A DNA stretch of 64,000 nucleotides from Bacteroidota bacterium (GTDB taxonomy: Bacteria > Bacteroidota > Bacteroidia > Bacteroidales > JABHKC01). The stretch covers positions 6,572 to 70,571 of the forward strand of contig JABHKC010000098.1 of NCBI GenBank assembly GCA_018692315.1, read 5' to 3'. Position numbers and translations under genes: made by a program. Below are positions 804-49,073 of the stretch, piece by piece. Positions within the stretch are counted from its first letter, which is position 1. The number at the start of each line of letters is the position of its first letter. The notes under the pieces were generated by a model. The model saw only the letters and a program-made list of their open reading frames with translations. It had not been told where the DNA came from and searched no databases.

Positions 804-831
804 GTTTCAGAAAATTTTTTGAAGAATATCA

Positions 832-2652: not shown

Positions 2653-2714
2653 AATCAAGTCTTAAATCAATTTTCCAAAAATATCTTTTTCAAAAAAATA
2701 CCCAATTTATTAAC

Positions 2715-3572: not shown

Positions 3573-3888
3573 ATATTCGACATAAAATAAAACACTAAAT
3601 CAAAAAAATCTAATTTTAGTTTTTGTTGATGTATTTCTTGTTTGATTTTCAAAATTATAAAATAAAGTATAGCTAATTTTGTCAATTTCTATTTGTCAAT
3701 CTATTTTTAGATAAAAACTAACATTTCCAAACTAAATAATTCAATCTTAAACTTAAGAAAATTAACATCTTACAAAATTATTTAATAATTACGGTTTAAA
3801 ACTTCAAAATGTTTTTTTTAAAAAAAAAATTGTACTTTTATAGCTGAATTTATTATGAAATTTTGATGTAAAATTAATAAAAATAATT

Positions 3889-6800: not shown

Positions 6801-6996
6801 AAACGAAAGAAGTGAAATTTCAATAAATGTTTATAATTTGAATGGACAAATTGTAAAATCTGAAATTATAAACAATCAAACTAAAGGAAATCACAACTAT
6901 TCATTTGATGTTGAAGATTTGAAATCCGGAACTTATGTTTTAATTCTTACTACTGAAAATCAAAAATATTCTACAAAATTCATTGTAAATAAATAA
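3889..6996 (+). CDS. T9SS cargo protein with BNR/Asp-box (sortilin/VPS10-like) repeats
   Basis: Signal-anchor N-terminus; repeated S-x-D-x-G-x-SW boxes (STTAGQSW, SYDAGDSW, STDKGISW); C-terminal FPNPVSD...GTYVLIL sorting-domain pattern. Confidence 0.7.
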   Translation: MKKIHLLLVFAVAILGGIIYLASSNINVSPHYIPRIDSKIHKSKNIKAAMEWLNLRKAGNKEGIVDLAKVREAEQKVKAMRLQKGTSSINLNWVEMGPDNIGGRTRALLIDKDDPNKMIAGGVAGGIWISTTAGQSWSKYNDLAENLSVASICQAANGDIYVGTGEGAFAGYYGNTTATNGMRGQGIWKSTDRGLSFNRLPSTYVENIAEDTALVNAAFSTVSELAADPTDANKIYASTTRGLLVSYDAGDSWSNPIFISETSQINVSDLSKDVAVASDGTVIAAVGNKGYISADGSSRSFTKISGNTDSLLLPNSGISRMEFAFAPSDPNFIYCLAAQPGGTLENIYQSTDKGISWNVVGQGGYAEFQPLGDQGEYDAVIAVYPDDKNSVLVGGQGNVYKGTSQEGTDEFYWEAKTEWYFETSSLLYVHADQHAIEFHPNYNGTDNKIVYISSDGGVHRSDYAGEYWQTMNKNYNTVQFYAVGISGDGRVIGGTQDNGTQYIDFLGNTDQNSVEVTGGDGGYAEISELDPDISFSTLYFGDLFRSAFRTEGYGSFYSSNLSGKHNIGTSDGGPRGGCFVTPIALWESFYDEYSNDYVSYINDTIFFSTFQDWDEFYAELMANHPDATIDTTISYSQQNVLTLSCAVTFPADDMLTTESLTNDLPLDFTLSEQLLPSDTIWVKDTYQSLFAVGLNGNGSNGGDGGKLWVTRQALNFAALPAPAWYQVLPENYNGSAFGEIQDIVISKDGNYIYFSTDNNRVYRVSGLLYAREAAEYNNDSSDVIKTSLLKSFNTTVTSISIDPNDAKNIVVTIGGYGEGVHIYYSSNATQSPANNVSFSEKQGNLPFMPVYSAILNWKDGAQVMIGTEFGVYSTEDITADEPVWVDQNPNGFANVPVFMLRQQIQENRWKPLINNHGYIYAATHGRGFFRAENMAGPTAIKEIDDYSTIAVSEITVFPNPVSDLATVKFYLNERSEISINVYNLNGQIVKSEIINNQTKGNHNYSFDVEDLKSGTYVLILTTENQKYSTKFIVNK

Positions 6997-7016
6997 ACGA
7001 TTTTATAATAATGGGA

Positions 7017-7048
7017 AGCCCCATCCTAAACTGGATGGGGCTTTTTTA
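7017..7048. terminator. bidirectional intrinsic terminator between convergent genes
   Basis: gccccatcc (7019-7027) / ggatggggc (7034-7042) 9-bp GC-rich stem with taaact loop; T6 run on + strand and A-rich run on the other side. Confidence 0.7.
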
Positions 7049-7051
7049 TTT

Positions 7052-7927
7052 TCAAATTTTCATTTCAATTTCTCTACCAAAAATTATTGGTAAATTTGGT
7101 TCTGAATGTCCCGCATCGAAAGCAAAGCATACAGGATATTCATATTCACTTACAGCTGCGGCAATTATCTCATATGCACTTTTTCCAAACGGAATATTAT
7201 TATCGTTCATATCGTCCATTCCGCCAACGATAAGACCTTTTAGAGAGGCTAATTTTCCAGAAACTTTCAGATTCATCATCATCCTGTCTATGTGATATAG
7301 ATATTCGTCGAGGTCTTCAATAAATAATATTTTGTTCTTTAATGAAATGTCAAAATCTGTACCTCTCAGGCTATATAAAATCGATAAATTTCCACCGACT
7401 ACCGGGGCAGTGCATGTCCCTTTTCTGTTAAATTTATGTTTTGGAAAATCGCATTTCAAATCTTCGCCCTTCAAAGTTTTCATCATTTTTTCCATTGAAA
7501 TTGTGATTGTTTCATCATTTGGAAAATTTATTGGCATGGTAGCATGAAGAGTTTCAATCTCTAATTTTTCATGAATAAACGAATGTAAAACAGTAAGGTC
7601 GCTGTATCCGACAATCCATTTTGGATTTTTGACAAATTTCTCGAAATTTAAATAATCAATAATTTTAATAGTCCCGTAACCACCTCTTGCACTAAATATA
7701 GCTTTAATAGAAATGTCATCAATCATTTCCTGAAAATCTGCTGCACGTTGTTTATCTGTTCCAGAAAATTGATTTTCCGATTGAAAAATATTTTTCCCCA
7801 ATACTACTTCAAATCCTTCCTTTTTAAAAAAACTGATTGCTGGAATTAGCTCTTCATATGAAATTTTGCGAGCAGGTGCAACAATTCCAATTTTGTCGCC
7901 TTTTTTCAAATATGGGGGTGTTTTCAT
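7052..7927 (-). CDS. LD-carboxypeptidase (peptidase S66, muramoyl-tetrapeptide carboxypeptidase-like)
   Basis: GDKIGIVAPA N-terminus, nucleophile context IVGYSDLTVLH, C-terminal GHSEPN-type motif. Confidence 0.85.
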   Translation of the reverse strand: MKTPPYLKKGDKIGIVAPARKISYEELIPAISFFKKEGFEVVLGKNIFQSENQFSGTDKQRAADFQEMIDDISIKAIFSARGGYGTIKIIDYLNFEKFVKNPKWIVGYSDLTVLHSFIHEKLEIETLHATMPINFPNDETITISMEKMMKTLKGEDLKCDFPKHKFNRKGTCTAPVVGGNLSILYSLRGTDFDISLKNKILFIEDLDEYLYHIDRMMMNLKVSGKLASLKGLIVGGMDDMNDNNIPFGKSAYEIIAAAVSEYEYPVCFAFDAGHSEPNLPIIFGREIEMKI

Positions 7928-7962
7928 TAAAGATGGAATTATTCAATTATTCAAAGATGGAA

Positions 7963-9021
7963 TTATTCTTTTTTCTTAGAAAACTTGCTTTTAATCCATC
8001 GTGGCAAAATAAATGCACCTATAAACAAATAAGGATAATAAGTTGTTAATCTCCATAAAAGAGCCATTGAAACGGCAAATCCAAGAGGAATAAAATCGGC
8101 AAGGTATCTCGAAAAAACAAACTCAGCAAATCCGCTACCACCAGGCGTTGGGCTCACCAGCATCATTATCCACATTACCAATTGACGTGCAAATATTAAA
8201 AAATGATCGTTCACTACAAAAAATGCTAACAACAAACTATTTACAACCCAAAAACGAGATGTCCAGGACAGAAAGGAAGCAAAAAATGCTTTTACCCAAA
8301 AACTTATCGATTTAGTTCTTAATTCTTTTGAAGTTACAATTATATCTGATCCTGCCTGATTTGCTTGTTGCCGCCACTTCCGTAAAAAGGGCAATCTGAA
8401 AACCTGCAACAACAACCATTTTATTGCTCTCGGATTTACGAACAGCCCATAACTCAAGAAAATAGTATATACCAGTTTCAATGAATATCCGACAACGGCA
8501 AAATAGAAAAATTCATTTGTGAACGAAATAACCTCTGCTCCTACTTCGCCAATCGAAAATAATTCTGAAATTTGCACAACTAGAAACAAAAGAGGAAACA
8601 TTATCAAAAAATATATTTCATCTAAAAAAGAGGTAGTAAGCACAACCGCCGTGCTTCTTCCTACACTTAATCCTTCTTTGTTTATGTATAAAACTGCAAT
8701 ACTTGTTCCGCCAATTGCCGAAGGAGTAACTGCTGAAGTAAATTCCCACAGCATTATAATGTTGAATGTTTTTCGCCAATTTAGCGATTTATCCGAAAGC
8801 ACTCTCAATCTAATCATATAGCCAATATCTCTCACAGCCATCATTATGAGCGAGACCAAAAGCCACAAAACTGAATATCTTGTAAATTCAATTATTGAAA
8901 TGGCTTCAACATCAAATTCCTGATAAAGCATAAAGGCAACAACAATCAATCCGATTAGCATAGGATAGATTATTTTGTTTATACGAACTTTTTTCAGTAA
9001 TTGTGGAGTATTATCAGTCAT
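7963..9021 (-). CDS. flippase-like / lysylphosphatidylglycerol-synthase TM-region family membrane protein (UPF0104)
   Basis: 352-aa polytopic membrane protein; PTPGGSGFAEF motif characteristic of this family. Confidence 0.6.
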   Translation of the reverse strand: MTDNTPQLLKKVRINKIIYPMLIGLIVVAFMLYQEFDVEAISIIEFTRYSVLWLLVSLIMMAVRDIGYMIRLRVLSDKSLNWRKTFNIIMLWEFTSAVTPSAIGGTSIAVLYINKEGLSVGRSTAVVLTTSFLDEIYFLIMFPLLFLVVQISELFSIGEVGAEVISFTNEFFYFAVVGYSLKLVYTIFLSYGLFVNPRAIKWLLLQVFRLPFLRKWRQQANQAGSDIIVTSKELRTKSISFWVKAFFASFLSWTSRFWVVNSLLLAFFVVNDHFLIFARQLVMWIMMLVSPTPGGSGFAEFVFSRYLADFIPLGFAVSMALLWRLTTYYPYLFIGAFILPRWIKSKFSKKKE

Positions 9022-33351: not shown

Positions 33352-33539
33352 TTTATTATATTTTTTAATTCCTTTATCAATTATCATTTCTAATTTCATT
33401 TTTCAAATATAACTTTTTCATCAAAACTAAATCATCTTATCAAAACCCATTTTCATTTGTTATTGTTTTCGGGTTTCTGATAATGCCTTCTTTATAGTGC
33501 TTATTACATACGCAACTCCAAAGGTCTCAAAGAACTTTA

Positions 33540-33720
33540 CCATCAGAGGTACAGCTTAAACTTTCTTTTGCTTGATGAACCGCTAAGTACGAGACCCGTA
33601 CGCTTAGTGGTACTTCGGCAGGCTCAGCAGAGCTGTGAGAGGTGCACTGGTGGCTATTATGCCATCAGCCGCCTACTCGATTGTATGCTGGGCTTTATTC
33701 ATTTTCAGTCAGTTAATAAT
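33540..33720 (+). ncRNA. candidate structured RNA of unknown class (GC-rich hairpin cluster)
   Basis: Local GC is far above the surroundings; hairpins at 33580-33610 and 33647-33668 each contain a G-T pair that is a wobble only on the + strand; no match to any RNA family consensus I can recall. Confidence 0.25.
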
Positions 33721-33790
33721 TTATTTACATTCATATTTTTTTCAATCGAAGCACTAATGTTTCTTAAAAAAATAGTTTTTTCGGGTCGGT

Positions 33791-33879
33791 AAAAAAAGCG
33801 TTGGCGCAGCCATACTCATTGACAAGTTTTGGCGATTGCGGTGGGCTTTTCGAGCGACTTGGCAATGTGTATGGTTGCG
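33791..33879 (-). terminator. long imperfect hairpin plus U7 tract downstream of the island operon
   Basis: 33805-33827 pairs with 33857-33879 (about 20 of 23 positions); on the minus strand followed by ccaacgc-ttttttt (plus-strand A7 at 33791-33797). Confidence 0.4.
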
Positions 33880-33891
33880 AAGTGTTGGGGT

Positions 33892-35247
33892 CTATTCTCC
33901 ATTTATTTCAATTAGTTTATCATTAAAATTCAGACCATTGTAATCAAATACATTCGATAAGTCATTTGAAGGTTCTATTCCAAATCTTGTACACATTTCA
34001 ATGTAGCAATCTTTTATTGTATCAAACTGTTCAATGTCATTTGTTCTTACCCCATTATTATCAGTTCCAGAGACTTTACATTTACTGTAAATTGAAATCC
34101 TTTCAGGCTGACCATCTATTTCAAGTAAAACAATTTGTTCTGCAGATTTCATTCTTACAGAGAAATATGTACCATCAGGTTTGTTTAATACAAAATTCAT
34201 ATTCTTTTTACTCCTATGAAATAATCTACCTCTTTTGAGGTTATTTAAGTCCTTGGTGATTTTAATAAGACTGTTCAATTCGTCTCTAAAAAATGGTGCA
34301 TCTACATCATTGTGAGCAAGTGGATTAAGAAGCAAGTCTTTGTATGTCTTCAAATCTGTAAATGGTGTGAAATCAACATTTTCTTCGGTACAGAAAATTT
34401 TAAAAGCGTGGATAAAATCATTTAAGTTTTTGTCAAATAATTTTGTCTCACCATCAACAGTTTTTTCTTCCTTTTTTAATTTTACAGGCAATAGTTCACC
34501 TAACTTTCTTTCAATCTCTTTCCTTAAATATATACCACAAGCAGCATAATCGTGCTGAATTAAAAAATCTTGTGCTGTTTGAATATTGTTTGGAAAAGGT
34601 TTAAAGTAAGGTTTTGAAAAGTCACCTGTATCATCTTGATACATTTCAATGAAATTCCAAATGTTAGTTTTACTATTAAATCTTATTTTGCTTTTTGCTA
34701 ATTCATAAAATGATTTGTCGTGAGTCATAAGAACTAACTGGTAGTCATCAGAATATTTTCCTAATAACAAATTCAAAACGATATTCCTGTTTCGCATATC
34801 TAAACTCAATAGCATATCATCTATTACTAAGGCTTTTAAATCTGCATCATAAAGTTTATAATCTAAAATAGCAAATCTTAATGAAAGACCAATTGCAGAC
34901 CATTTTGCCTCGTTTAAAAATGTGTGTGGCTTTTTAATTTTCGGATTATTTATATCGTCATATTTTGTTAGAGAAAAAAGTATTTTATGATTATAAAAAG
35001 TAAATTCTTCTTCTTGTACTTCAAATTGTTTTTGCTTTAATTCAAGTTTGATTTTAAAGTTGTAATCAAATTCATCTTCGATTAACTCATTTGCTTTTGT
35101 TGTGATGTTTGATATAAAACTCTTTAGCCAATTATTCCAAGCCTTTACCTTCTGCTTGTATGTTATGTATTTCTTATAATCTCCCTTTTCTTCAATTGAT
35201 AGTGCGGTTCTTAAAGATGCTGTGGGAAAAACATCTTCACCGTGCAA
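33892..35247 (-). CDS. ABC-type (PrrC/RloC-like AAA_13-style) ATPase, C-terminal fragment: signature, Walker B, H-loop and an effector-like domain of about 260 aa
   Basis: LNEAKWSAIGLSL (signature-like), ALVIDDMLLSLD (Walker B/D-loop), LVLMTHD (H-loop). The TTG start is an ORF-caller artefact, because the frame stays open upstream to the A9 tract at 35311-35319. Confidence 0.7.
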   Translation of the reverse strand: MHGEDVFPTASLRTALSIEEKGDYKKYITYKQKVKAWNNWLKSFISNITTKANELIEDEFDYNFKIKLELKQKQFEVQEEEFTFYNHKILFSLTKYDDINNPKIKKPHTFLNEAKWSAIGLSLRFAILDYKLYDADLKALVIDDMLLSLDMRNRNIVLNLLLGKYSDDYQLVLMTHDKSFYELAKSKIRFNSKTNIWNFIEMYQDDTGDFSKPYFKPFPNNIQTAQDFLIQHDYAACGIYLRKEIERKLGELLPVKLKKEEKTVDGETKLFDKNLNDFIHAFKIFCTEENVDFTPFTDLKTYKDLLLNPLAHNDVDAPFFRDELNSLIKITKDLNNLKRGRLFHRSKKNMNFVLNKPDGTYFSVRMKSAEQIVLLEIDGQPERISIYSKCKVSGTDNNGVRTNDIEQFDTIKDCYIEMCTRFGIEPSNDLSNVFDYNGLNFNDKLIEINGE

Positions 35248-35251
35248 ATTT

Positions 35252-35803
35252 TTAATTCTTTCTGGTCCCTTTTTTAATTCTTCTAATTCTTTTAAACAGG
35301 GTGAAGCTCCTTTTTTTTACATATGGCAATACTTCTTCTTCAAACCAAAGCCAAAGGTCATTATCTTTTGAGTGTTTTAGGTTGTGCAACTGGAAAAGAA
35401 CACGATAGTTTATAAAATCGGTTGCCATACTGCTTTTTACTACATCGACATTATTGCGAATTGATAAATCTCTACTTTTTCTGGAAATCCGAAATGTTTT
35501 TGGATTATTGCCATCATCATCTTTTAAAACCACTTTAATAAATGAGTTATTCCTGGCTGACGATGCGTGAATATTTACAAGACTATCATTACCAGTTTTC
35601 TTAAAGTACTTCCTAATATCATCATCATCCTTTTTTAGGCTCGATTCAAGTAATGTGTATAAAGCCCAATAGATTGTTGATTTTCCACTTCCGTTTTCGC
35701 CATAAATTAGTAAATGGTTTCCATCAATTTTAAGCAAAGGGCTTGCTGGCTCAACTTCCGAAAAAAACTTAAAATCGTTAATATGTAATTCGTGCAACTT
35801 CAT
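35252..35803 (-). CDS. ABC-type ATPase, N-terminal fragment (Walker A), truncated by a frameshift in the A9 tract
   Basis: LLIYGENGSGKSTIYWAL Walker A. The last 17 residues (RSFTLFKRIRRIKKGTRKN) are out-of-frame read-through after the homopolymer. Confidence 0.7.
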   Translation of the reverse strand: MKLHELHINDFKFFSEVEPASPLLKIDGNHLLIYGENGSGKSTIYWALYTLLESSLKKDDDDIRKYFKKTGNDSLVNIHASSARNNSFIKVVLKDDDGNNPKTFRISRKSRDLSIRNNVDVVKSSMATDFINYRVLFQLHNLKHSKDNDLWLWFEEEVLPYVKKRSFTLFKRIRRIKKGTRKN

Positions 35804-35804
35804 A

Positions 35805-38800
35805 TTAATGGGTTGATTCGTTTATGCGTTTTATGATATTTGGGCTATTAACAGATGAAAGCAATATTCTATTCCTAATTGGATTATCCTTCTCCTTTAA
35901 TTTGTAATATTCACGTTGAATTACATCCCGCTTTTCTTCAAAGGTTTCTAATTGGTTTATGCCTTCAAAATCTACAAATTGCAATACGTCTATTTTGTTT
36001 TCTTTCATATGCTTTTCAAAATAGAGTTCGTAAACCATATAGTCAATTACTTCTTCAAATGTAGATGACAATATTTCATGTGAAATACTATTTAAGATTG
36101 ATTCTGAGCTTTTCTTTATGAATAAAATGTAGTCAACTATTACATTAAATATTTCCTCAATTTCAATACTTGGATATGGTACAAGCAAGGGTTCTAATGC
36201 CTGAACACTTATTATTTGGTCACCTGTACCAGTTTGTGGTGAAGTTTTTATTAATTGATAAAGACCAATCTTCGAATTTAACACCGCGGTTAAATATTTT
36301 ATTTTTTCTCCTGTTGCAATACAAGTACTATCTAAGCAGTATATTTCTTCATCAGAATATGCAAAACGCATAATAGAACCGATCCGTTTCCAAATTACTT
36401 TTTCTTTCTTAAATTCAGCAACAAAACCTATTGGGTCTTGTGTTTCAAACCATTTATTCCCTGATTTCTTTCTCGTTTTTTCTTTAACACCTTTATTATT
36501 GATAAATGTTTCACCTGTTTGATTTAATTTAGGTTGAAAACTTTCAAGATACCTTCTAACAGCTTTAAAATCTTCTATTTCAATATTTAGACTTGGGAAA
36601 GTGGCTATTACATAATCATTCTTCCAATCCACATGATATCCCTGTATTTCACGACCCTTTAAGATGGGTCTTATAATTTCATCAGAAGAATTATCTTCTG
36701 CAACTAATTCGTCACGTTTTGCCTGGTCAATAATAAAAGCCCCATTAAAACCTGTTAAGATTCCTCTGTAAATTTCCAAATTCCAATCCCGTAGAGGCTT
36801 TCCAAATTCTACCAAAGCTTTATTAATAATTAGCTCTTCTTCATTTAAAACTATCCAAGCCTCTTCATTCACATCACATAGGGGAATAAAATCTTCATTT
36901 CTTAACGAAGTAATATTATATCTATTTGCTATTTCAATCCCCTTTACTTTATTTTTAAATGAATTCTTTTCACCAATAAAAATATTGGTATCAACTGTTG
37001 CACTATGAAATATCCCTGGACCAAGAATTAAAATTTTCTTGGGATTTATTTTTGTAAAGTAGTTTCTTAATGCTTTACCATATCCACCACGCATCCATTT
37101 ATTAGAAGTGATAAATGTTAATACACCACCTGTTTGCAGCAGATTAATTCCTTTTTCATAGAAAAGGCAATAAATATCTCCAGTGCGAGCAAATGTCTCA
37201 AAGCCTTCATTTTGCAAAATGTCAGCTTGTTTTCCCATTTTTTGTAATTGGATGTAAGGTGGATTCCCAATAAAGATATCAAAGCCTCCTTTTTCGAACA
37301 CATCCATAAAAAACAGATGCCAAAGAAAATAAGGGCGTTCATCGGTTTGTTCAAAGTCTTTTAACTTTTTACGCGCATTCCCTTTATTGTCCAAAAGTTT
37401 CTGCCGCTCTTTAATTTCCTTTACTTCTCGGCTTTTGTCATTATATATTTCTCTTAGCTCCTCATTCAGGTTTTCAAGTTTTATATTCAGTTTTTCCTGG
37501 TAGGTTGCTATTTCGATAAGAAGACGGTTTTCCCAAAATTCCAGAGATTTATCAATATGGTCGAGAACAATCTTATCAATGGCTTTATGTATTTTGGTCT
37601 TTTCATCTTTGTCCTCTACTTTAAAATAATCTTTAATCAACTGCTTTATGTCGGTTCTATTTTCTTCCGAAAAACTGTAATCTGTTTTTGGTTCTTCAAA
37701 TAGTGTTGGATTTACATGCATAACATTTGGTTCTTCAAATAAAGCAGTTTCACTCAAATCAATGCCTTCAAAACTTTCAAGCAAACTATTGCCTTGCATT
37801 ATTTTATAGTCAAGATTAGGTAAGGGCTCTGGTTTGGTTTCATCCACTACCAATGCCAACCAAAAACGTAATTGGGCAATATCAACTGCACCCTTTTCAA
37901 TATCCACTCCGTAAATAGAATTTTGGATTATGGCTTTTTTAACCTTTGCAGGATTAAATTCCTTATTGGTTTTCAGGTAAGGATAAATAAACTTTTTTGC
38001 TTCGAATAGTTCGTGTAAAATTCCGATAGGAAAAGCACCTGAACCAATTGCCGGGTCGCAAATTTTTACCTCATTTAACTTTTGGTCGAGGGCTATGGCA
38101 TTGTCTCTTACACTAAAATAAGATGAAACGCTGTGGTTACGTATGAACCATTCAACGTCAGCCTCAACTGGGAAGTGGTTTTTCAAATACTGTATTGTGC
38201 TTTCTTTGCACATATACTGGACTACTTCTTTGGGTGTATAAAAAGCTCCTTTTTCACGGTTTTCTTCGAGTAAGTTTTCAAAAATATGACCGAGCATTTC
38301 AGGATCAATTCCTACTTCGTGGTCATCGGGGCTGTTTTCATCAATGGTAAAATTGTATTGTGCAAAAAACTCAAACAGTTCTGCAAAATACTTTACAGGA
38401 AAATCAACACTCAAAATTTCTTTGGGTTTATCGGCATCAAATAATCCTCCATTCAAATATGGCACACGAGAACCATTGAGAAAACCATTTAATCCTTTGA
38501 TTTCAAAAACATCGTTTTTTCGTTTGGTGTTTAGTGTGTTAAAGAATAGTTTTGTTAAACAATGGCTATGAAATTGTTTTTTGTCTTCAAACTTCTCAAA
38601 AAGCAATTGCATAAATTGTTTTTCGCCACCTTCCCATTTTTTTGTATTAGCAGGGCAAGCCATCCAACCTTTCTTTTGCAGAAAATGTAGGAAAACAATA
38701 CGACCGAGAAGTTTTTTAGCAAAGTCGCGAATTGGTTTCTCTTGTTTGTCAGGTTCATCCTTTGATGTATCCAAAAGTATAGCCCGATAACCAAATTCAT

Positions 38801-39416
38801 CATTGGCAATGTATCTCCAAAACTTTTCGTAATGTTCTTTGTAGGATTTGAAGAAGTCCTTTTTCAATGGCTCAACCGAGAAAGTGTCCAATAATTGTTT
38901 AATACCAATTAATGCTCCCTTGGCTTTTTTCTCCGCCAATTCCGAAAGTCTTTTTGAGGCTGTAGTACATGATTCGTTGCCCCCAAGTAAATAGGTATAA
39001 CGTTTTGGTTTGGTTTCGCCTTTAATAAATTCACCAGTTTCCAAATCAATATCCGACCATTTGGCAATAAATGAAAAACGATAATCTTTTTGATTTTTAG
39101 AATAGAAAAACACCAAAGCACCGTGAGTAATATTTTGGTCGATATGTTTGGCTGCAATATCCCTTAATCCTTTACGGTTTTGGTCAATTCTAATGCTATC
39201 ATCAACTTCTACTTCGAAAATGGCAAGCGATTTATTGTCGTCCAGTTTAATAGCGCCGATCTGTTTTCCTGATTTTACTTTTTTCTGTTCAAAAAATGGA
39301 TTTGAAGGAGTCAGGAAATATTCAATTTTTCCAAAAAGCAAAGTCAATATAGATTTCCAATTTTCGTTGAAATTGTAATCTTTCTGTAATATATGTTTTA
39401 GGTCTTTTTCTTTCAT
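35805..39416 (-). CDS. Eco57I/PglX-type gamma-class N6-adenine DNA methyltransferase with TaqI-like C-terminal specificity domain (type IIG/IIL-like)
   Basis: 1203 aa; GAFYTPKEVV, motif I DPAIGSGAFP, long coiled insertion, motif IV IGNPPYIQ, TRD pattern YRGILTGFNGAFIID; N-terminal region of about 330 aa of uncertain function. Confidence 0.85.
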   Translation of the reverse strand: MKEKDLKHILQKDYNFNENWKSILTLLFGKIEYFLTPSNPFFEQKKVKSGKQIGAIKLDDNKSLAIFEVEVDDSIRIDQNRKGLRDIAAKHIDQNITHGALVFFYSKNQKDYRFSFIAKWSDIDLETGEFIKGETKPKRYTYLLGGNESCTTASKRLSELAEKKAKGALIGIKQLLDTFSVEPLKKDFFKSYKEHYEKFWRYIANDEFGYRAILLDTSKDEPDKQEKPIRDFAKKLLGRIVFLHFLQKKGWMACPANTKKWEGGEKQFMQLLFEKFEDKKQFHSHCLTKLFFNTLNTKRKNDVFEIKGLNGFLNGSRVPYLNGGLFDADKPKEILSVDFPVKYFAELFEFFAQYNFTIDENSPDDHEVGIDPEMLGHIFENLLEENREKGAFYTPKEVVQYMCKESTIQYLKNHFPVEADVEWFIRNHSVSSYFSVRDNAIALDQKLNEVKICDPAIGSGAFPIGILHELFEAKKFIYPYLKTNKEFNPAKVKKAIIQNSIYGVDIEKGAVDIAQLRFWLALVVDETKPEPLPNLDYKIMQGNSLLESFEGIDLSETALFEEPNVMHVNPTLFEEPKTDYSFSEENRTDIKQLIKDYFKVEDKDEKTKIHKAIDKIVLDHIDKSLEFWENRLLIEIATYQEKLNIKLENLNEELREIYNDKSREVKEIKERQKLLDNKGNARKKLKDFEQTDERPYFLWHLFFMDVFEKGGFDIFIGNPPYIQLQKMGKQADILQNEGFETFARTGDIYCLFYEKGINLLQTGGVLTFITSNKWMRGGYGKALRNYFTKINPKKILILGPGIFHSATVDTNIFIGEKNSFKNKVKGIEIANRYNITSLRNEDFIPLCDVNEEAWIVLNEEELIINKALVEFGKPLRDWNLEIYRGILTGFNGAFIIDQAKRDELVAEDNSSDEIIRPILKGREIQGYHVDWKNDYVIATFPSLNIEIEDFKAVRRYLESFQPKLNQTGETFINNKGVKEKTRKKSGNKWFETQDPIGFVAEFKKEKVIWKRIGSIMRFAYSDEEIYCLDSTCIATGEKIKYLTAVLNSKIGLYQLIKTSPQTGTGDQIISVQALEPLLVPYPSIEIEEIFNVIVDYILFIKKSSESILNSISHEILSSTFEEVIDYMVYELYFEKHMKENKIDVLQFVDFEGINQLETFEEKRDVIQREYYKLKEKDNPIRNRILLSSVNSPNIIKRINESTH

Positions 39417-40234
39417 TATTTCAACTTCTTAAGCCTGTCGTTATGTTTAAGCAACGATTTCATTTGGGTTATTGCCAATTGGTTAAGTTGCTGCAATCGT
39501 TCTGATTGTGGAATATCTTGTTGTATTAGCATTGCATTGATGCTTTCCATATTCGACAAAACTACTAATTGTTCAATGCTTGCAAAGTCTCTAATATTTC
39601 CCGTTTCGCCCGAATTTTCGTCACGCCATTGCTTGGCAGTTTTACCAAATAAAGCAAGGTTTAATACATCAGCCTCGTTGGCATAGATAAATGAAATTTG
39701 TCTTTTGTTGAGTTTTTCCGGAATTAGATTCTCTTTAATTGCATCGGTATGAATATGATAATTAACCTTTGCAAGTGTTCGTTGGAAATTCCATTCGAGT
39801 TTCAAACGGTCATTTTCATCTTCTTTAAGTCGTTGGTATTCTTTAACCAGAAGTAATTGAAATTTTGGACTAATCCACATTCCAAAATGAAAGGCAATGT
39901 CTTTATGAGCATAAGTTCCTCCATATCTTCCAGCCTTTGCAGTTAGACCAACAGCATTAGTAGCCTCAATCCACTGTTTAACAGATAAAACAAAATTATT
40001 ACTACCTGCTGTATTTTTAATTATACCGAATTCGGTATAATTAAAATCGGGATTATACAATGCTTCCCACTCACCAAGATATTCAATAGTACTTTTTAAA
40101 CTTAACCATTTAATTATTACAACCTCTTGATGTTGACTTCTTGCCATATCAGTAAGAGAAATATAATCATTTTCTTTTTGTGCGATTATCGCTATCTCTT
40201 TTCCTTCAATATTTATTTTCTTGTTTTTTGCCAT
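39416..40234 (-). CDS. KilA-N domain-containing protein
   Basis: ISLTDMAR...GTYAHKDIAFHFGMWISPKFQLLLVKEYQRL matches the KilA-N pattern common in Bacteroidota R-M loci; its stop overlaps the MTase ATG (TAATG). Confidence 0.7.
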   Translation of the reverse strand: MAKNKKINIEGKEIAIIAQKENDYISLTDMARSQHQEVVIIKWLSLKSTIEYLGEWEALYNPDFNYTEFGIIKNTAGSNNFVLSVKQWIEATNAVGLTAKAGRYGGTYAHKDIAFHFGMWISPKFQLLLVKEYQRLKEDENDRLKLEWNFQRTLAKVNYHIHTDAIKENLIPEKLNKRQISFIYANEADVLNLALFGKTAKQWRDENSGETGNIRDFASIEQLVVLSNMESINAMLIQQDIPQSERLQQLNQLAITQMKSLLKHNDRLKKLK

Positions 40235-40250
40235 CAGATATTATTTTTTC

Positions 40251-40273
40251 TAAAAAGGGGTCGAATTCGACCC
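40251..40273 (-). terminator. internal attenuator/terminator candidate between the helicase and KilA-N genes
   Basis: Perfect 16-bp palindrome gggtcgaattcgaccc (40258-40273), followed on the minus strand by cttttta. Confidence 0.4.
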
Positions 40274-40313
40274 GATTATTAGAGTTATAATTATTTTGAA
40301 TCGCCACCATTCA

Positions 40314-43300
40314 TTATGTGTAACTTTCTGTTATTATAATCTCAGGATTCAATATTTTTGAAGTAACAACTTTTACTTGTTCCACTTCATCAATTTCCTC
40401 GTTTACCAGTGGATAACTTTTCAATATGCCAATTATTCTTTCCAGTATTATTACCGGCTTTAAAGGACTTTTACCAACTGCTCTTTTTAGTTTGTTAATA
40501 TCACGTTGTAAATTTTGAAATCTACCTTTCCGAATGGCTTCTTTTGCAGTAATTATCAATTCTGTCTCTGCATCGTTTGTAAAAGGCAGATTAATCATTG
40601 CATCCAGGTAAGAAATTGCACGTTTTTCGTTTGGTCCTTGCGTAACATCAACTTTTTTATCTTTTGCTTTTTCCTCTTCAAGTTTTTCCGAAAACAGTTT
40701 AATTGCTGTTTTTACTTGTTCGTGATGTTTGGAATGTAAGGGTATTCCTTTTTCGTTTGCATCGGCTTCAAATTTCTTTATTGTTTCAAGAAAGGTTAAT
40801 TCTTCAATTTCATCTTTTGAATTCACATAAATAAAGGCATCTCTTTTTGCATCTTTAACAAAACTGATAGTGCTATTATTTAAGTCGCTGTTTTTTCTTC
40901 CGACTCTTGCCCGTAAAGGCATATTTTTTATTTGTTTGAAAAATGTTGGGTCTTTTTCTTTAATGTCCCTTATCATCATTAAATAAGCCAACTTCTCATC
41001 TTTTTCCTCTTCTAATTCGTGGTCAAAAAGTCCAAAAGTTTCTATCTCCTCATCTGGCGAATATATTTGACTATCTTCTCCAAGTGCAGCGTGAAAAGCC
41101 TGTAACTTCATTATTGCTTTTTTCTCCAATTCAATATCACTATTAACCTTTGCTGTTGGGTAGAAATTATAAACGTGTACTTCTTTTGCAATTGAACCAA
41201 TTCTATTTACCCGACCAATTCTTTGCATCAATCGGGTTGAATTCCAAGGTGTATCATAGTTGACAATCACATTTGCTCTATGTAAGTTAATTCCCTCTGC
41301 CAGAACTTCTGTTGAGATAACAATGTTGAAATTATTTTTTTGCTCCGATTTTAGAATATTAGCATCAAAATTACTTCTGATTATTGGCATTTTTTCTTTT
41401 CGTGATTTACTATCCACCATCAATATGTTTTCATCAATATATTTTGGTAATTCACGATATAAATATTCTGTAGTTTCTTTGCTTTCAGAAAAAACTATCA
41501 ATTTTGAGGTTGGATTAATTTTCTTCTTTAGAAGTATGGTTATCAAATAGTCAGCAAAGACTTCCAATTTAGGGTCGTCATCTATTTTTTGCCATTCTTT
41601 ATTTAACGATTTTAATAATTCGTAATCATTTTTAAGTCCTGGTAAGAAGTCGTATTCAAAATCATCAGGCTCACAAATATCTATTGTTGGGTCTTCTATC
41701 GATTTCTCAATTATCAATTCTAATAATTCTTCCTCTTTTCCTTCATTAATAAAGTCCGATACTGGTAAGTTTGGTGCAATATAAATCTTGCCATTTTCAA
41801 ACATTGTAACCATTGCTTTAGTAGCCATCATAAAGCGATACAAGGATTTCTTAAAAGCATAAAAACTACTGTCAATTCTTTTAACAAGTAATGTTTTCAT
41901 AATTTTTGCCAACTGACTGGAAATCATATCGGCTTGTTTATACTTTGCTTTTTTATGTGGTTTCAGAAAAGCAATTGCTTGGTATCTGTTGTAAGTTAAG
42001 CCTTGTGTTGGATGGCTTAATACAAACATTGTTTTATCATAAATGGTATCAAGATGTGGCTCTAATTGATAAAGTATCTTTTTTGGTGCTCCTACTTTTG
42101 GAAACTTAATGCCTTGCTTTTCTAAATCTTTAGAATATAAATCGTGAGCCATTAAATCGGTTCGTGTTCTTCGCACAATTAATGGTTCAATAACCTTTGT
42201 TCTAATTCTTTCATAAATCCGCTTAACTCCTTGTTGAACAACTTTTATGTCCGGCTCTTTTTTTAGTTTTTTATACGCATCAATTTGAATTCTGAAAAAA
42301 TGTTGCAAGTTCCCAATTTCAAGTGTAGAGTTTTTACTGTCTTGAAACAGATAAACTAAATTCGCAATATCTTCAGGTTTGTTATTCAGAGGTGTCGCTG
42401 AAACAAGCATTACTTTTTTTTGAACAGTTCTACCATCAGGAAGTATTCTACGAGTTGATGTTTTACATATTTTCTGTAATTCATTATACATTGTTGCTGT
42501 ATCAGAACGAAATTTATGTGCCTCATCAACAATTATTAAATCATATTTTCTTGCATCTCTAATTTTATGCAAACTTCCGTTTGTAATAATTTTTACATTA
42601 TCTAATCTGAATTTGTCGGTTGTTTCAGCCCAATTTTCTTTTAAAGCAGGCGGCACAATAATTAGGGTACGTGAGCGATGTGATGGAAAACCATTTGAAT
42701 AGAAATATTTTTTAGCAATTATTGTTGCTACAACTGTTTTCCCGAGTCCAACAACATCAGCCAAAATAAAACCATCGTGTTTCATTATTTTGGTAAAGCC
42801 ATCATTAACAGCATCTATTTGATATGAAAGCCTTTTAAATCCTCTCGGTAAATCGGTTATTGAGTTTGGGTCAAATTCTATACTTTTTCCAAAGTACTCA
42901 ACCAGGAATTTTAAATAAACTTCATAAGGTGTGTATGTGTCATTTAGATATGTTTCTTTTTGTAACTTCTCAATATAATCTTCCTCTATTGGAATTGATT
43001 CTCCCCATAATTTCTCAAATGTTTCAGAAGCAAAATCAATGTCGGTATTATCCCTAAGTTCTATATTAAATTCAAAATTTCTTGAAAGTCCAGCATCTGT
43101 TAAATTGCTTGAACCAGTAATTACAGAACCATATCCGTGGTTGTGTTTTTCTTGTTCTTTGAAGATGTAAATTTTAGCGTGAATATTTTGTTTAGGATGA
43201 ACCTTAATTTTTAGTTTTCCTGTAACGATATCTGAAATCAATTGAAGCATTCCTTCTTCAACTTCTTTATCATATTCGGCTTCTTGAATACTCTTTTTTA

Positions 43301-43574
43301 TTTCCTTGAAGAATTCATTTTGTGCTTTCTCAGCATTTGGATCAAATAGTAATCCTTGTTGTGAGGCTTCATTAATTAGATTGTCAATGTTTATTCCAAC
43401 AAGTATTCTTATTTCAGATGCCTTCTCAATGAATTTTCTAATCCTGAAATAGCCAGAAGCACGAAAATATCCAACTAAAGCATCAAAGAAATGAATATTT
43501 CTATGTTTGAATATTCCCTCAATTTTATTGATTAAGGTATTCTCTGCTTCGTTTGTAAAAAATTTAGTGCTCAT
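40314..43574 (-). CDS. PLD-nuclease-domain / SNF2-family helicase fusion protein
   Basis: Single HKD motif near aa 132-158 (NIHAKIYIF...GSSNLT); SNF2 motifs LADVVGLGKT, LIIVDEAHKFR, VSATPLNN, AEGINL, QRIGRVNRIG. Confidence 0.85.
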   Translation of the reverse strand: MSTKFFTNEAENTLINKIEGIFKHRNIHFFDALVGYFRASGYFRIRKFIEKASEIRILVGINIDNLINEASQQGLLFDPNAEKAQNEFFKEIKKSIQEAEYDKEVEEGMLQLISDIVTGKLKIKVHPKQNIHAKIYIFKEQEKHNHGYGSVITGSSNLTDAGLSRNFEFNIELRDNTDIDFASETFEKLWGESIPIEEDYIEKLQKETYLNDTYTPYEVYLKFLVEYFGKSIEFDPNSITDLPRGFKRLSYQIDAVNDGFTKIMKHDGFILADVVGLGKTVVATIIAKKYFYSNGFPSHRSRTLIIVPPALKENWAETTDKFRLDNVKIITNGSLHKIRDARKYDLIIVDEAHKFRSDTATMYNELQKICKTSTRRILPDGRTVQKKVMLVSATPLNNKPEDIANLVYLFQDSKNSTLEIGNLQHFFRIQIDAYKKLKKEPDIKVVQQGVKRIYERIRTKVIEPLIVRRTRTDLMAHDLYSKDLEKQGIKFPKVGAPKKILYQLEPHLDTIYDKTMFVLSHPTQGLTYNRYQAIAFLKPHKKAKYKQADMISSQLAKIMKTLLVKRIDSSFYAFKKSLYRFMMATKAMVTMFENGKIYIAPNLPVSDFINEGKEEELLELIIEKSIEDPTIDICEPDDFEYDFLPGLKNDYELLKSLNKEWQKIDDDPKLEVFADYLITILLKKKINPTSKLIVFSESKETTEYLYRELPKYIDENILMVDSKSRKEKMPIIRSNFDANILKSEQKNNFNIVISTEVLAEGINLHRANVIVNYDTPWNSTRLMQRIGRVNRIGSIAKEVHVYNFYPTAKVNSDIELEKKAIMKLQAFHAALGEDSQIYSPDEEIETFGLFDHELEEEKDEKLAYLMMIRDIKEKDPTFFKQIKNMPLRARVGRKNSDLNNSTISFVKDAKRDAFIYVNSKDEIEELTFLETIKKFEADANEKGIPLHSKHHEQVKTAIKLFSEKLEEEKAKDKKVDVTQGPNEKRAISYLDAMINLPFTNDAETELIITAKEAIRKGRFQNLQRDINKLKRAVGKSPLKPVIILERIIGILKSYPLVNEEIDEVEQVKVVTSKILNPEIIITESYT

Positions 43575-43849
43575 ATGGTTTTCAATATTTCTTTTAGTCC
43601 ATCTTTCAAATAATTAAGTTCTCCCAAGTCCGTAATTATTGCTGATTGTATAAACTGTATTTCAATCTCTTTTTCTGCTTTATCCAAAGTTTCTGCTAAA
43701 ATTGGAATCATTTCAGTTGTTGCACGTCTTTCGTTTCTCTCAATTTTACTCAATATTGAGGTATCAATATCAAGTGCCGCTGCAACTTTTCTCAGAGGTA
43801 ATCCTATGTCCTCTCTTGATTTCCGTATGTATTCTCCAAACGTTTTCAT
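43571..43849 (-). CDS. XRE-family helix-turn-helix transcriptional regulator
   Basis: FGEYIRKSREDIGLPLRKVAAALDIDTSILSKIERNER; ATGA overlap with the helicase gene. Confidence 0.8.
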   Translation of the reverse strand: MKTFGEYIRKSREDIGLPLRKVAAALDIDTSILSKIERNERRATTEMIPILAETLDKAEKEIEIQFIQSAIITDLGELNYLKDGLKEILKTI

Positions 43850-43862
43850 ATTGTCGTAATTG

Positions 43863-43882
43863 TTTTGACGATTTTGTCAAAA
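43863..43882. promoter_or_regulatory. candidate operator palindrome for the XRE regulator
   Basis: ttttgac-gatttt-gtcaaaa, perfect 7-bp arms, between the -7 box and the ATG of the HTH gene. Confidence 0.45.
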
Positions 43883-43885
43883 GTA
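43878..43885 (-). promoter_or_regulatory. candidate -7 promoter box (TAnnTTTG) of the island operon
   Basis: Minus strand reads tacttttg about 28 nt upstream of the HTH ATG; overlaps the palindrome. Confidence 0.4.
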
Positions 43886-44166
43886 GGATAATTTTTTTGT
43901 TTTTCGGGCTGGATTTGTGCGTTGGGTTCCCTAATTGTCCCGAAGGGCAAAAGCGGGTCGGCAAAAACTATTTTTTTCTTGCCCCAAATTTCATTCTTGA
44001 CTGATATTTTATTAATTCGATTTTTCAATTTTCAATCAGTTTATTTCAATATACTTCGGTTCTTTAGCCTTGCATACAACATCTGTGTAAGAGGAAACTT
44101 CCTCTTATTATTTTATTAGTTGCGTAACTATTATTTCCATTTTCAGGGGAATATGGTGAACTTTTG

Positions 44167-44286
44167 TTAAATAATGTCATCTATTGGTTTTTTAAAGTTT
44201 CTAAATTTATTCTTGCAAACATGTGTGTAAATTTCTGTTAAACTAAACCCAAGCCAGCTAATTAAGAAATAATCTCGTGAGTTCAT
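44167..44286 (-). pseudogene. tyrosine recombinase/integrase, C-terminal stub only
   Basis: Hand translation MNSRDYFLISWLGFSLTEIYTHVCKNKFRNFKKPIDDII* matches the ...LLGHSxxxTTEIYTHVxxxxLxxIKSPLDxL C-terminus (catalytic Tyr box); stop codons immediately upstream. Confidence 0.55.
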
Positions 44287-44616
44287 CTTTATTATTTTTT
44301 AAAATATGTAAATATGAGAAAAAATATTAATCTACTGTAAAATAATTGTTTGAAATATTAAACAAAATGCAAAGAGGCTTTTAGTGAATAATCAATACTG
44401 AAAAACTGTCATATGCAAATAATTATTATCAAATATTACCTAAGGGGGCTTCTAAAAATAGTAAATTTCAAGGCGTAAGAAATTTGAAAACCGGAGTTTT
44501 CTATTGTAAATGAGGATTTTAAAATTTTGAAACAACTAAGAAATTTGCATTTTTTGAAGTCGCCTAATTATCTACAACAAATGACATTTCGCTTCTTTAC
44601 ATATCAAAGAACTAAA

Positions 44617-44787
44617 TTATTTAATGAAAAATCTACCAGACTTCAAAATATCATTTCCGAAAATACGATAAAAATACATTCCACATCTTATTTTTGGAAA
44701 ATTTATTTCTGAAATGCCAATATCAAATTTCTTTATTAAAAATTCTTTAAGCAAGGCAGCCAAAAGCCTAAATCCTGGTCCTGAAAA
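44617..44787 (-). pseudogene. T9SS C-terminal sorting-domain remnant
   Basis: Hand translation ...FDIGISEINFPKIRCGMYFYRIFGNDILKSGRFFIK*, the typical end of a T9SS sorting domain; no N-terminal part, and it abuts the RND gene stop. Confidence 0.5.
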
Positions 44788-44806
44788 TTAAGTTTTGTCA
44801 AAGCAA

Positions 44807-48474: not shown

Positions 48475-48849
48475 TTATTGGTAATTATTCCGAATTCTCA
48501 GCTTTGTGTCTTCTATTATCACTAAAGAATTTGATAAAATATCTGTTTTCAGATTTAATAGCTGACTATAAACTTTTATTACATTTGTTGCTTGAATGTT
48601 TTTTAGCTTAATATAGATAATTCCATAATAACTAATCCCTTCAAAAATATCTGACTTCCCAAAGTCTTCGTCGTGGGTCAAAACAAACCGGTTTCCTAAA
48701 TATGCAGTTTTAATAAGCTCTTCGTCGGTTTTTCCAATCCAATTGTTTTCTTTTACGTCAAGTACATCTATGTTTTGTAGTCGAAGAAAATTGACTACTA
48801 CAGGAGAAATATTTTCATCGGTAAGTAATTTTATCTTTTTAAATATCAT
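48475..48849 (-). CDS. DUF5615-family PIN-like putative toxin
   Basis: 124 aa; LLTDENISPVVVNFLR...DVLDV...THDEDFG pattern; ATGA overlap with the upstream DUF433 gene. Confidence 0.65.
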   Translation of the reverse strand: MIFKKIKLLTDENISPVVVNFLRLQNIDVLDVKENNWIGKTDEELIKTAYLGNRFVLTHDEDFGKSDIFEGISYYGIIYIKLKNIQATNVIKVYSQLLNLKTDILSNSLVIIEDTKLRIRNNYQ

Positions 48850-49073
48850 AACTTAACCTCCAAATTTAGATTATCAATATTTTTGTAAAAATGTGCCAAA
48901 TATTTGTAGCAGGCATGTAAATCTTCCTTTATAATATGAGAATAGTCTTGAAGAATTTCATCTTCCGATACTCCGGAAGCAAGTAAATTGAGAATAAATT
49001 CAACACTTATTCTTGAACCAGCAATAATTGGCCTTCCTCCAGCAATTTTCGGATTAATTGTAATTCTTTCCAT
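48846..49073 (-). CDS. DUF433 domain putative antitoxin
   Basis: 75 aa; INPKIAGGRPIIAGSRISVEFILNLLASGVSEDEILQDY is the DUF433 signature. Confidence 0.75.
   Translation of the reverse strand: MERITINPKIAGGRPIIAGSRISVEFILNLLASGVSEDEILQDYSHIIKEDLHACYKYLAHFYKNIDNLNLEVKL

Follow-up and report, generated by a model that had tools for sequence, protein, structure and literature searches.

What kind of system is encoded by a compact run of minus-strand genes in a 64,000-nucleotide (nt) stretch of contig JABHKC010000098.1 from a Bacteroidota bacterium? The whole stretch is called the window here, and all positions are counted along it. The run comprises genes for an XRE-type helix-turn-helix (HTH) protein, a fusion of a PLD nuclease domain to a SNF2 helicase motor (PLD-SNF2), a KilA-N protein, a putative N6-adenine methyltransferase (MTase), and an ABC ATPase. 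We consider it probable, judging from gene content and conservation, that the locus forms a cassette of ~10.2 kb (33790-43953) that is self-contained, moves horizontally, and represents an unnamed, widespread family of ATP-dependent defense systems of the restriction-modification (R-M) type. In the arrangement that we favor, and hold to be likely, PLD-SNF2 would serve as the restriction (R) subunit and the MTase as the combined modification and specificity (M/S) subunit, with the KilA-N gene embedded between them. The parts are familiar, and their combination is uncharacterized, abundant, and experimentally tractable; it is a variant within the class of methylation-based motor-nuclease systems. 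A literature search found no paper naming or testing the PLD-SNF2/MTase/ABC-ATPase architecture (the trio). The genes, as given by the open reading frame (ORF) calls, are as follows.

43571-43849, minus strand: XRE gene, 92 amino acids (aa)
40314-43574, minus strand: PLD-SNF2 gene, 1086 aa
39416-40234, minus strand: KilA-N gene, 272 aa
35805-39416, minus strand: MTase gene, 1203 aa
35252-35803, minus strand: N-terminal fragment of the ABC ATPase with Walker A, 183 aa, its last codons out of frame after the A8 tract
35311-35318, minus strand: A8 tract with the +1 frameshift in the ATPase gene
33892-35310, minus strand: remainder of the ABC ATPase, with signature, Walker B, H-loop, helical HEPN-like domain, and beta-rich C-terminal domain

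An initial annotation of this stretch had described five minus-strand genes joined by a 4-nt ATGA overlap, a 1-nt TAATG overlap, and a 1-nt gap, and the ORF calls agree with it in each respect. Its domain claims for all five genes were likewise confirmed by Pfam, and the catalytic motifs are present.

Which of these genes belong together was addressed with a set of 96 related loci, in which ORFs were called and then labeled by iterative hidden Markov model (HMM) searches with the window proteins. A scan of genome contigs gave just 4 useful loci, and the survey is therefore based on a metagenome scan. Full-length PLD-SNF2 was found in 77 distinct loci; in 72 of these an Eco57I/TaqI_C MTase lies downstream on the same strand, and in the remaining 5 the contig ends within 340 nt of PLD-SNF2. 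The order PLD-SNF2 then MTase thus holds in 72/72 informative loci, over helicase identities of 34 to 91%, which makes the pair the invariant core of the family. This co-conservation bears out the two-component, Type III-like R-M core (PLD-SNF2 plus an MTase carrying its own target recognition domain [TRD]) that had been proposed for the locus.

PLD-SNF2 contains PLDc_2/RE_NgoFVII (residues 82 to 190), SNF2-rel_dom/ResIII (250 to 490), and Helicase_C (677 to 793) domains in Pfam, with the motifs H132-x-K134, GSSN at 155 to 158, GLGKT at 276, and DEAH at 350. H132, K134, GSSN, Walker A, and DEAH show little or no variation among 40 representatives at 30 to 54% identity. PLD-SNF2 is the predicted restriction subunit. 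Its best PADLOC match, nearly full-length at 155 bits, is C3a139 "HKD+Snf2," a family that has simply been noted beside type III CRISPR loci. Each chain supplies one HKD half-site, so pairing would be needed to form an active site, as in BfiI, SauUSI, and MtsD.

The MTase matches Eco57I, N6_Mtase, TaqI_C, and MmeI_Mtase in Pfam, and its DPAIGSG (motif I, 454) and NPPY (718) stand in the gamma order. Its catalytic residues, like those of PLD-SNF2, are conserved throughout the family. Its sequence identifies it as a gamma-class N6-adenine enzyme with a single TaqI_C-type TRD, and it would act as the modification and specificity subunit. Type IIG enzymes share the gamma-class N6-adenine MTase with a TaqI_C-type TRD, and the best PADLOC matches are indeed REase_MTase_IIG models (522 bits, collinear over residues 64 to 1132), so annotation pipelines would agree with a reading in which the 1203-aa protein is an ordinary Type IIG enzyme that cuts and methylates alone, the helicase and ATPase being unrelated defense-island neighbors. 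PADLOC Type IIG models match the N terminus at 113 bits. However, the N-terminal 180 residues hold no conserved D..(D/E)xK acidic/Lys motif among 55 family members, and an AlphaFold2 (AF2) model of this region, with a predicted local distance difference test score (pLDDT) of 76, had no PDB fold match below E=0.03 in Foldseek and no structural match to MmeI- or BpuSI-type nucleases. On both counts we do not favor the MTase N terminus as a nuclease, and the PLD site of the helicase is probably the only family-wide conserved nuclease site of the system. Adjacency of helicase and MTase in all 72 informative loci across deep divergence is also not what chance would give, and we regard the Type IIG reading as very unlikely. 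As a separate observation, a 1366-aa homolog of the window MTase (P0136) also carries PF04480 (DUF559, Vsr-like endonuclease), and some members of the MTase family may have gained a nuclease of their own.

Identity between the MTase and its close relatives is mosaic, at 81 to 97% around motifs I to III versus 27 to 85% in the TRD, and overall these relatives are 74 to 96% identical in the helicase and only 48 to 77% in the MTase. A mosaic TRD combined with a better-conserved helicase is the signature of specificity shuffling in an R-M system. PLD-SNF2 has hundreds of near-identical relatives (78 to 96% identity), mainly in Bacteroidota, and an exhaustive search placed its family at 1177 clusters at 50% identity (E<1e-30), with more than 150 clusters matching full-length. 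Carriers include Melioribacteraceae, Chitinophagaceae, Tenuifilaceae, Prevotella, and Chryseobacterium and, outside Bacteroidota, one match labeled Acutalibacteraceae and a partial one from Chlorobiota. Helicase identity of ~80% across these taxa is a sign of vigorous horizontal transfer. Dozens of loci from different phyla conserve the compact four-gene layout, and related cassettes occur in integrative elements (with integrase, HTH_17, and DUF3987/VapE primase) or in defense islands.

This distribution is also what must be set against a role outside defense, in which the MTase would be an epigenetic regulator and the SNF2 protein a DNA-repair or remodeling factor. Housekeeping roles do exist for solitary MTases and for bacterial SNF2 proteins like RapA, and a frameshift might be tolerated in such a setting. 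Yet the patchy cross-phylum occurrence at ~80% identity, with Acutalibacteraceae among Bacteroidota, the location in integrative elements and defense islands with embedded toxin-type genes, and the conserved PLD nuclease site alongside a diversifying TRD all argue otherwise, and we give this reading a remote chance.

How the ABC ATPase relates to the core pair is a harder question. Its N-terminal part matches AAA_23, AAA_15, and SMC_N in Pfam and has the Walker A sequence GENGSGKST; the ATPase heads are Rad50/SMC-like, with Rad50-type matches at residues 290 to 376. The initial annotation had alluded to a defect in an A-tract, and the gene is in fact split into ORFs of 183 and 451 aa by one additional A at 35311-35318. 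Removing one A from the A8 tract restores a 636-aa ATPase that is collinear with intact relatives. The closest of these, L001, has an A7 tract and reads GTAAAAAAAGAT in frame where the window reads GTAAAAAAAAGG. Six independent assemblies have the same 183 plus 451 split, and at least 23 metagenome contigs encode exactly this 451-aa product. The frameshift is real and fixed in this genome. A second lineage (L013-L016) has an ATPase gene that was frameshifted and truncated independently, again beside undamaged R and M genes. Two accounts suggest themselves: the core can do without the ATPase, or the frameshifted copies died recently. As a speculation, slippage on the A8 tract could yield some full-length ATPase.

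Where enough downstream sequence was available, the ATPase follows the MTase at -11 to +15 nt in 16/37 loci and is missing from the other 21, which keep the core pair. The position after the MTase is elsewhere taken by McrBC, a MotA-like protein, DUF6602, an AAA_21 ABC ATPase, or RhuM. Three distant ATPase homologs (38 to 44% identity) all lie within the same trio, which argues that the ATPase is a dedicated component of one subtype and not a promiscuous neighbor. The trio with the ATPase is thus co-conserved across genomes, as had been anticipated, in a large subclade. The description of the ATPase as an acquired effector is too simple, as its family is found only with the PLD-SNF2/MTase system and the copy here is frameshifted.

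The closest analogue of the trio, not named in the initial annotation, is MANTIS (Gao_RL, or BREX-related type 2; MtsA-D), which is made up of an N6-MTase, an ATPase, and an HKD-SF2 helicase, often with a small repressor, and in which the second ATPase is needed for methylation itself. By this comparison the trio can be seen as an ABC-ATPase analogue of MANTIS. The two would have in common a specificity-setting N6-adenine MTase, a second ATPase, and an N-terminal single-HKD PLD fused to an SF2/SNF2 helicase, and PLD-SNF2 is collinear, if weakly, with the PADLOC PLD_Helicase and NCBIfam phospholipD_antiphage models. The latter gives 151 bits versus a cut-off of 1100, so the relationship is architectural rather than orthologous. 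MANTIS differs in having the AAA+ DUF499 protein MtsA as its second ATPase, where the locus here has an ABC/Rad50-type protein with a helical C-terminal domain. A DUF3780/3870 MtsB is lacking here, the helicase gene comes first in a reversed gene order, and many relatives go without the second ATPase. DUF499 and DUF3780 were not found in the Pfam lists of the loci surveyed, and none of the large ORFs near distant loci resembled DUF499, as judged by eye only, without a domain scan.

If the likeness extended to mechanism, the trio would be an obligatory dual-ATPase system in which the ABC ATPase is a loader or regulator needed for methylation and for licensing of the nuclease, playing the part of MtsA/BrxC or HmaC. 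We find this doubtful, and equally so its corollary that the frameshift leaves the whole system here inert and decaying. The parts list is the same, the ATPase family occurs only with the PLD-SNF2/MTase pair and is translationally coupled to the MTase, and the ATPase evolves as fast as the MTase (35 to 61% versus 48 to 65% identity). However, the 21/37 loci of the wider family that have the pair alone speak against an obligate partner, as do the two lineages that have lost the ATPase with the 1086-aa and 1203-aa ORFs intact. Moreover, the ATPase is not an AAA+ DUF499 protein and has no DUF3780/3870 partner, and a conserved R..E..H helical domain would be given no role.

This domain is what points to another function. 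In the repaired 636-aa ATPase, an AF2 model (pLDDT 85) has a helical, HEPN-like domain at residues 406 to 520 and a beta-rich domain at 521 to 636; short forms of the ATPase (516 to 532 aa) stop after the helical domain, and long forms add the beta-rich one. The helical domain contains invariant R427, E431, N493, and H497 (LRKxxE and LNPx[A/S]H), and across 48 ATPase homologs R427-x3-E431 and [S/A]H497 are invariant with 57 to 65 residues between the R-E pair and the H. An R-x3-E...(S)H pattern is the catalytic triad of the PrrC/RloC anticodon nucleases (PMC2610378), and ABC-HEPN fusions in R-M operons beside RhuM and Fic genes are a described theme (PMC3710099); RhuM and Fic genes occur in PLD-SNF2/MTase loci as well. 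Foldseek searches of PDB with the ATPase C terminus returned weak, partial HEPN matches (2hsb and 2q00; probability 0.82 to 0.84, template modeling score 0.55 to 0.61 per target, E ~0.6 to 1), and no match was obtained in BFVD, in Pfam (E<=10), in PADLOC with 49 homologs, in NCBIfam, or in a PDB sequence-profile search. The ATPase therefore resembles PrrC/RloC in its ABC N-terminal domain, its C-terminal helical motif pattern, and its encoding within an R-M operon. It differs in that neither sequence nor profile comparison gives a significant match (Pfam AAA_13 is sub-threshold and covers only the ABC part), the spacing is longer, and the partner is not a Type I enzyme; an RNase activity here would be hypothetical. 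MADS was considered as well and rejected, the match being a weak one to mad3 only (52 bits), in the ABC heads.

Could the locus instead be a member or a remnant of another named system? In agreement with the initial annotation, which could not place the architecture in a named system, none was found to fit: DISARM, BREX, MANTIS/Gao_RL, Hma, Type III, and NgoAVII/CglI each fail at least one defining feature, and Pfam and PADLOC found neither DrmA/DrmB, PglZ/BrxC, nor B3 partners within +/-10 kb. Class 1 DISARM (DrmA-D and DrmMI) is similar in its SNF2 helicase (DrmD-like), PLD nuclease (DrmC-like), and N6-adenine MTase (DrmMI-like) and differs in that its defining DrmA and DrmB (DUF1998) are absent here and that PLD and SNF2 are fused. 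DrmA and DrmB were not found by Pfam in the cassette, within +/-10 kb, or in related loci, and neither PglZ nor BrxC of BREX was found in the window neighborhood or in relatives. A degenerate class 1 DISARM or a BREX remnant that has lost DrmA/DrmB or PglZ/BrxC could account for the partial HMM matches to DrmD, DrmMI, DrmC, and PglX. These scores, however, are far under the cut-offs: NCBIfam DISARM_DrmD gives 149.5 bits versus 610, and PglX models give the MTase 55 to 70 bits versus 400 to 900 (for the 70-bit model, 500). PADLOC DrmMI reaches 99.6 bits on the MTase versus 522 for REase_MTase_IIG. Decay of this kind is also hard to reconcile with a four-gene layout conserved in dozens of loci, none with DrmA/B or PglZ adjacent, and we consider a remnant hardly credible.

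Functionally, the core would correspond to a Type ISP/Type III-like enzyme in split form whose nuclease is of the PLD kind. Like Type ISP (LlaGI/LlaBIII) and Type III enzymes, it combines a nuclease, an SF2 ATP motor, a gamma-type N6-adenine MTase, and a single TRD. Such a set is expected to go with asymmetric sites, one-strand methylation, and ATP-driven communication along DNA. Unlike in Type ISP/III enzymes, the functions here are divided between two proteins, R with the nuclease and motor and M with the MTase and TRD, and the nuclease is PLD/HKD rather than Mrr/PD-(D/E)xK, with a SNF2-like motor. Type III enzymes in addition have a beta-class MTase in Mod and a C-terminal PD-ExK nuclease in Res, whereas the MTase here is gamma-class and the PLD domain N-terminal.

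Two further systems share part of the architecture. Hma, which was suggested by the title of the earlier note, consists of HmaA-HmaB-HmaC, with an m5C MTase in HmaB and a C-terminal PD-(D/E)xK nuclease in HmaA. It too is a three-gene helicase-methylase-ATPase operon with a nuclease-SNF2 fusion and a hotspot for embedded defense genes. The HmaA model, however, matches only the C-lobe of the helicase (residues 684 to 832), and the 23 PADLOC families with matches to the ATPase do not include HmaC. We rejected Hma because the locus has an N6-adenine MTase rather than an m5C one and carries its nuclease as an N-terminal PLD domain. In NgoAVII/CglI, the R protein is PLD plus B3, with a separate N helicase and a C5 MTase; the RE_NgoFVII PLD domain matches here (E=3.9e-8). 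It forms one protein with the helicase, however, B3 is missing, and the MTase is an N6-adenine enzyme.

The remaining genes and the limits of the cassette involve several noncoding features, which are listed here.

43865-43885, minus strand: promoter/operator, with the -7 box at 43878-43885 and a palindrome at 43865-43880
40258-40273, minus strand: terminator-like hairpin GGGTCGAATTCGACCC with a T-run, between the helicase gene and KilA-N
33806-33878, minus strand: conserved 19-bp hairpin directly after the ATPase stop
43954-43961, no strand: right 8-bp direct repeat CGGGTCGG, cassette boundary
33782-33789, no strand: left 8-bp direct repeat CGGGTCGG, cassette boundary
43962-43977, no strand: right arm of the split hairpin flanking the insertion site, reverse complement of 33766-33781
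33766-33781, no strand: left arm of the split hairpin flanking the insertion site

The KilA-N protein had been thought to be an adaptor, which the survey does not sustain. It has the Pfam KilA-N domain and corresponds to PADLOC PDC-S22 over its full length (E=2.5e-130, 431.6 bits, residues 1 to 270 versus positions 1 to 272 of a 281-position profile). None of the close relatives examined (L001-4, L008-12, L017, and L119-122) has it between helicase and MTase, the MTase there beginning 1 to 12 nt past the helicase stop, and homologs at 55 to 65% identity adjoin a Tn3 transposase, lie near a Type I R-M system, or are found among housekeeping genes. On this evidence, the KilA-N gene is an independent embedded cassette. 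PDC-S22, whose function is putative, is here embedded in a type of system not covered by the guilt-by-embedding survey. In 11 loci, this junction is occupied by other genes, among them YhcG/DUF1016, PIN, RhuM-Fic, 23S-IVP, and PDDEXK_3, as well as AAA_14-DUF4143, Bro-N, AlbA_2-HATPase_c_4 (the embedded gene of L013-L016), and a second, truncated KilA-N. The helicase-MTase junction is thus a recurrent slot for defense genes, which extends "embedding" to a new host system.

That the genes form a single operon holds only approximately. The 79-nt gap between helicase and KilA-N contains the terminator-like hairpin GGGTCGAATTCGACCC, and the five genes are therefore not one seamless operon. This hairpin was the highest-ranked terminator-like site in a scan of 33500-44800 and sits in sequence that is missing from relatives without the KilA-N insert.

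The XRE protein matches HTH_3 in Pfam (E=3.5e-8) and, weakly, HTH_VI, capH, and Control_protein (E=0.0011) in PADLOC, and its PDB matches are ClgR-type. Its gene overlaps the helicase gene by 4 nt in the window, L001, L008, L009-17, and L122, and an XRE gene overlapping the helicase start was found in 11/65 loci with an upstream ORF. Upstream of it, a Bacteroidota-type -7 box (TAnnTTTG) is overlapped by the palindrome TTGAC-N6-GTCAA, and a third GAC/GTC half-site precedes the XRE ATG. In 11 loci with helicase identity down to 42%, the TA..TTTG columns do not vary and the palindrome is retained. The position of XRE and the conserved box and palindrome correspond to the layout of an autoregulated controller protein, and XRE is a probable C-protein-like controller of the cassette.

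Where does the cassette begin and end? The repeat CGGGTCGG is present only twice in the window, once at each cassette end, and the 16-nt arms outside the two copies are reverse complements of each other; joined, the flanks fold as one hairpin (dG -11.7). From the direct repeat and the complementary arms, the cassette appears to have entered a former hairpin at its loop, duplicating 8 bp. It encodes no recombinase. DNA homology to the closest relative, L001, runs from 33798 to 43885. Of the span claimed by the initial annotation, the start at 33782 coincides with the left direct repeat, and the end at 44286 was placed too far, the unit stopping at 43961. The 19-bp hairpin at 33806-33878 has 19 pairs, 6 of them with compensatory double changes, in an RNAalifold alignment of the window, L001, and L009, and homologous hairpins lie at 9580-9680 in L001 and 8812-8905 in L009. 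It could be a terminator or a 3' end element, or a recombination end of the cassette. Flanking it are CTTCG and CCAACGC motifs, both of which recur upstream of XRE in L009 and L013.

An empty insertion site (AAAAAAATAGTTTTTTCGGGTCGGCAAAAACTATTTTTTT) was sought via the flanking genes, and every AcrB contig holds the island. L109, a contig with the gene for a 306-aa hypothetical protein and a different upstream context, was rejected as an empty site, since divergence begins 60 nt before the repeat. L109 and L116 come from the same sample (ERZ508549), L116 with the AcrB-plus-island arrangement and L109 with the 306-aa gene preceded by hydrolase genes; two arrangements within one sample indicate strain-level rearrangement at the insertion spot. 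On several contigs from independent assemblies (L009-L012 and L017, ~8.6 to 9.7 kb), the sequence breaks off within ~100 to 250 nt on either side of the four-gene cassette, a pattern that would follow from its presence in more than one context per sample.

How, then, might the system work? The MTase would mark host DNA at a short asymmetric site, which it would recognize by its single TRD, a fast-evolving domain. PLD-SNF2 would be recruited or licensed at unmodified sites, translocate with ATP, and cut. XRE would bind the promoter palindrome and set the timing and level of expression like an R-M controller protein. KilA-N (PDC-S22) would be a separate candidate defense or regulator gene that arrived with its own upstream terminator. 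The ABC ATPase may be a PrrC/RloC-like guard whose HEPN-like domain is silenced by the R-M proteins and unleashed upon their inhibition; this guard role is the one we favor for the ATPase over its main rival, the MANTIS-like loader, though we put it forward only tentatively, by analogy. With the ATPase frameshift fixed, at most the two-gene core would be active here, unless slippage on the A8 tract rescues the product. A bolder version strikes us as improbable: the trio would be a two-layer immune unit in which the ATPase is a divergent PrrC/RloC-type HEPN RNase mounted on a non-Type I R-M system and fired by phage inhibitors, with the promoter-to-hairpin cassette moving into hairpin loops by means of a recombinase supplied in trans.

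Several points weigh against the R-M-type reading as set out here. Gene content, motifs, co-conservation, the TRD mosaic, the frameshift, the KilA-N insertion, and the cassette limits are directly observed, but each biochemical step (methylation, cleavage, and protection) is deduced from sequence. As the MANTIS ATPase is required for methylation, a similar requirement would mean that the frameshift inactivates the whole system here. The terminator between the R gene and KilA-N may uncouple expression of the downstream genes. The HEPN assignment is weak, with Foldseek E values of 0.6 to 1 and no profile support; the arginine of the canonical HEPN Rx4-6H motif is replaced in the ATPase (LNPLAH), and the R-E-to-H spacing of 57 to 65 residues exceeds the 36 to 52 in RloC. 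Lastly, the similarity of XRE to known C proteins extends no further than that of a generic HTH.

The family is nonetheless of practical consequence. With current defense finders, the output for this locus would be limited to a "Type IIG" methylase and a PDC-S22 candidate, and the restriction subunit and the ATPase would be overlooked. It offers a natural comparison to MANTIS, BREX, and DISARM in its MTase-directed recognition coupled to a motor-nuclease, and its distinct form is a minimal two-gene core with an optional ABC ATPase replacing the AAA+ loader. The contribution of a second ATPase to methylation-based immunity thereby becomes directly testable.

Some further observations concern individual relatives and the surroundings of the cassette. 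A human oral isolate in culture, Prevotella sp. oral taxon 299 F0039, has the trio at 8001-17690 of L118 (NC_022111.1), with ~1.4 kb of extra sequence between helicase and MTase; the public record is unannotated there. Beside the related cassette of L013-L016, positions 95-8206 encode XRE, an OLD-TOPRIM ABC ATPase, an N6_N4 MTase, and a ResIII helicase, plus SLATT and SMODS, and this neighborhood is a typical defense island. In the window, Rfam and tRNA scans for RNA genes gave nothing. A GC-rich stretch at ~33600-33723, upstream of genes for the 306-aa hypothetical protein and a TonB-dependent receptor, has no Rfam match and is 97% identical in L109 despite the entirely different upstream context there; it may be a leader or regulatory RNA. 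Finally, an efflux operon in the window has, between its RND adaptor gene and its AcrB pump gene, a DUF433 and DUF5615/PIN_10 pair (48475-48849 plus a 75-aa ORF directly upstream, at ~48846-49073) that looks like a toxin-antitoxin module.

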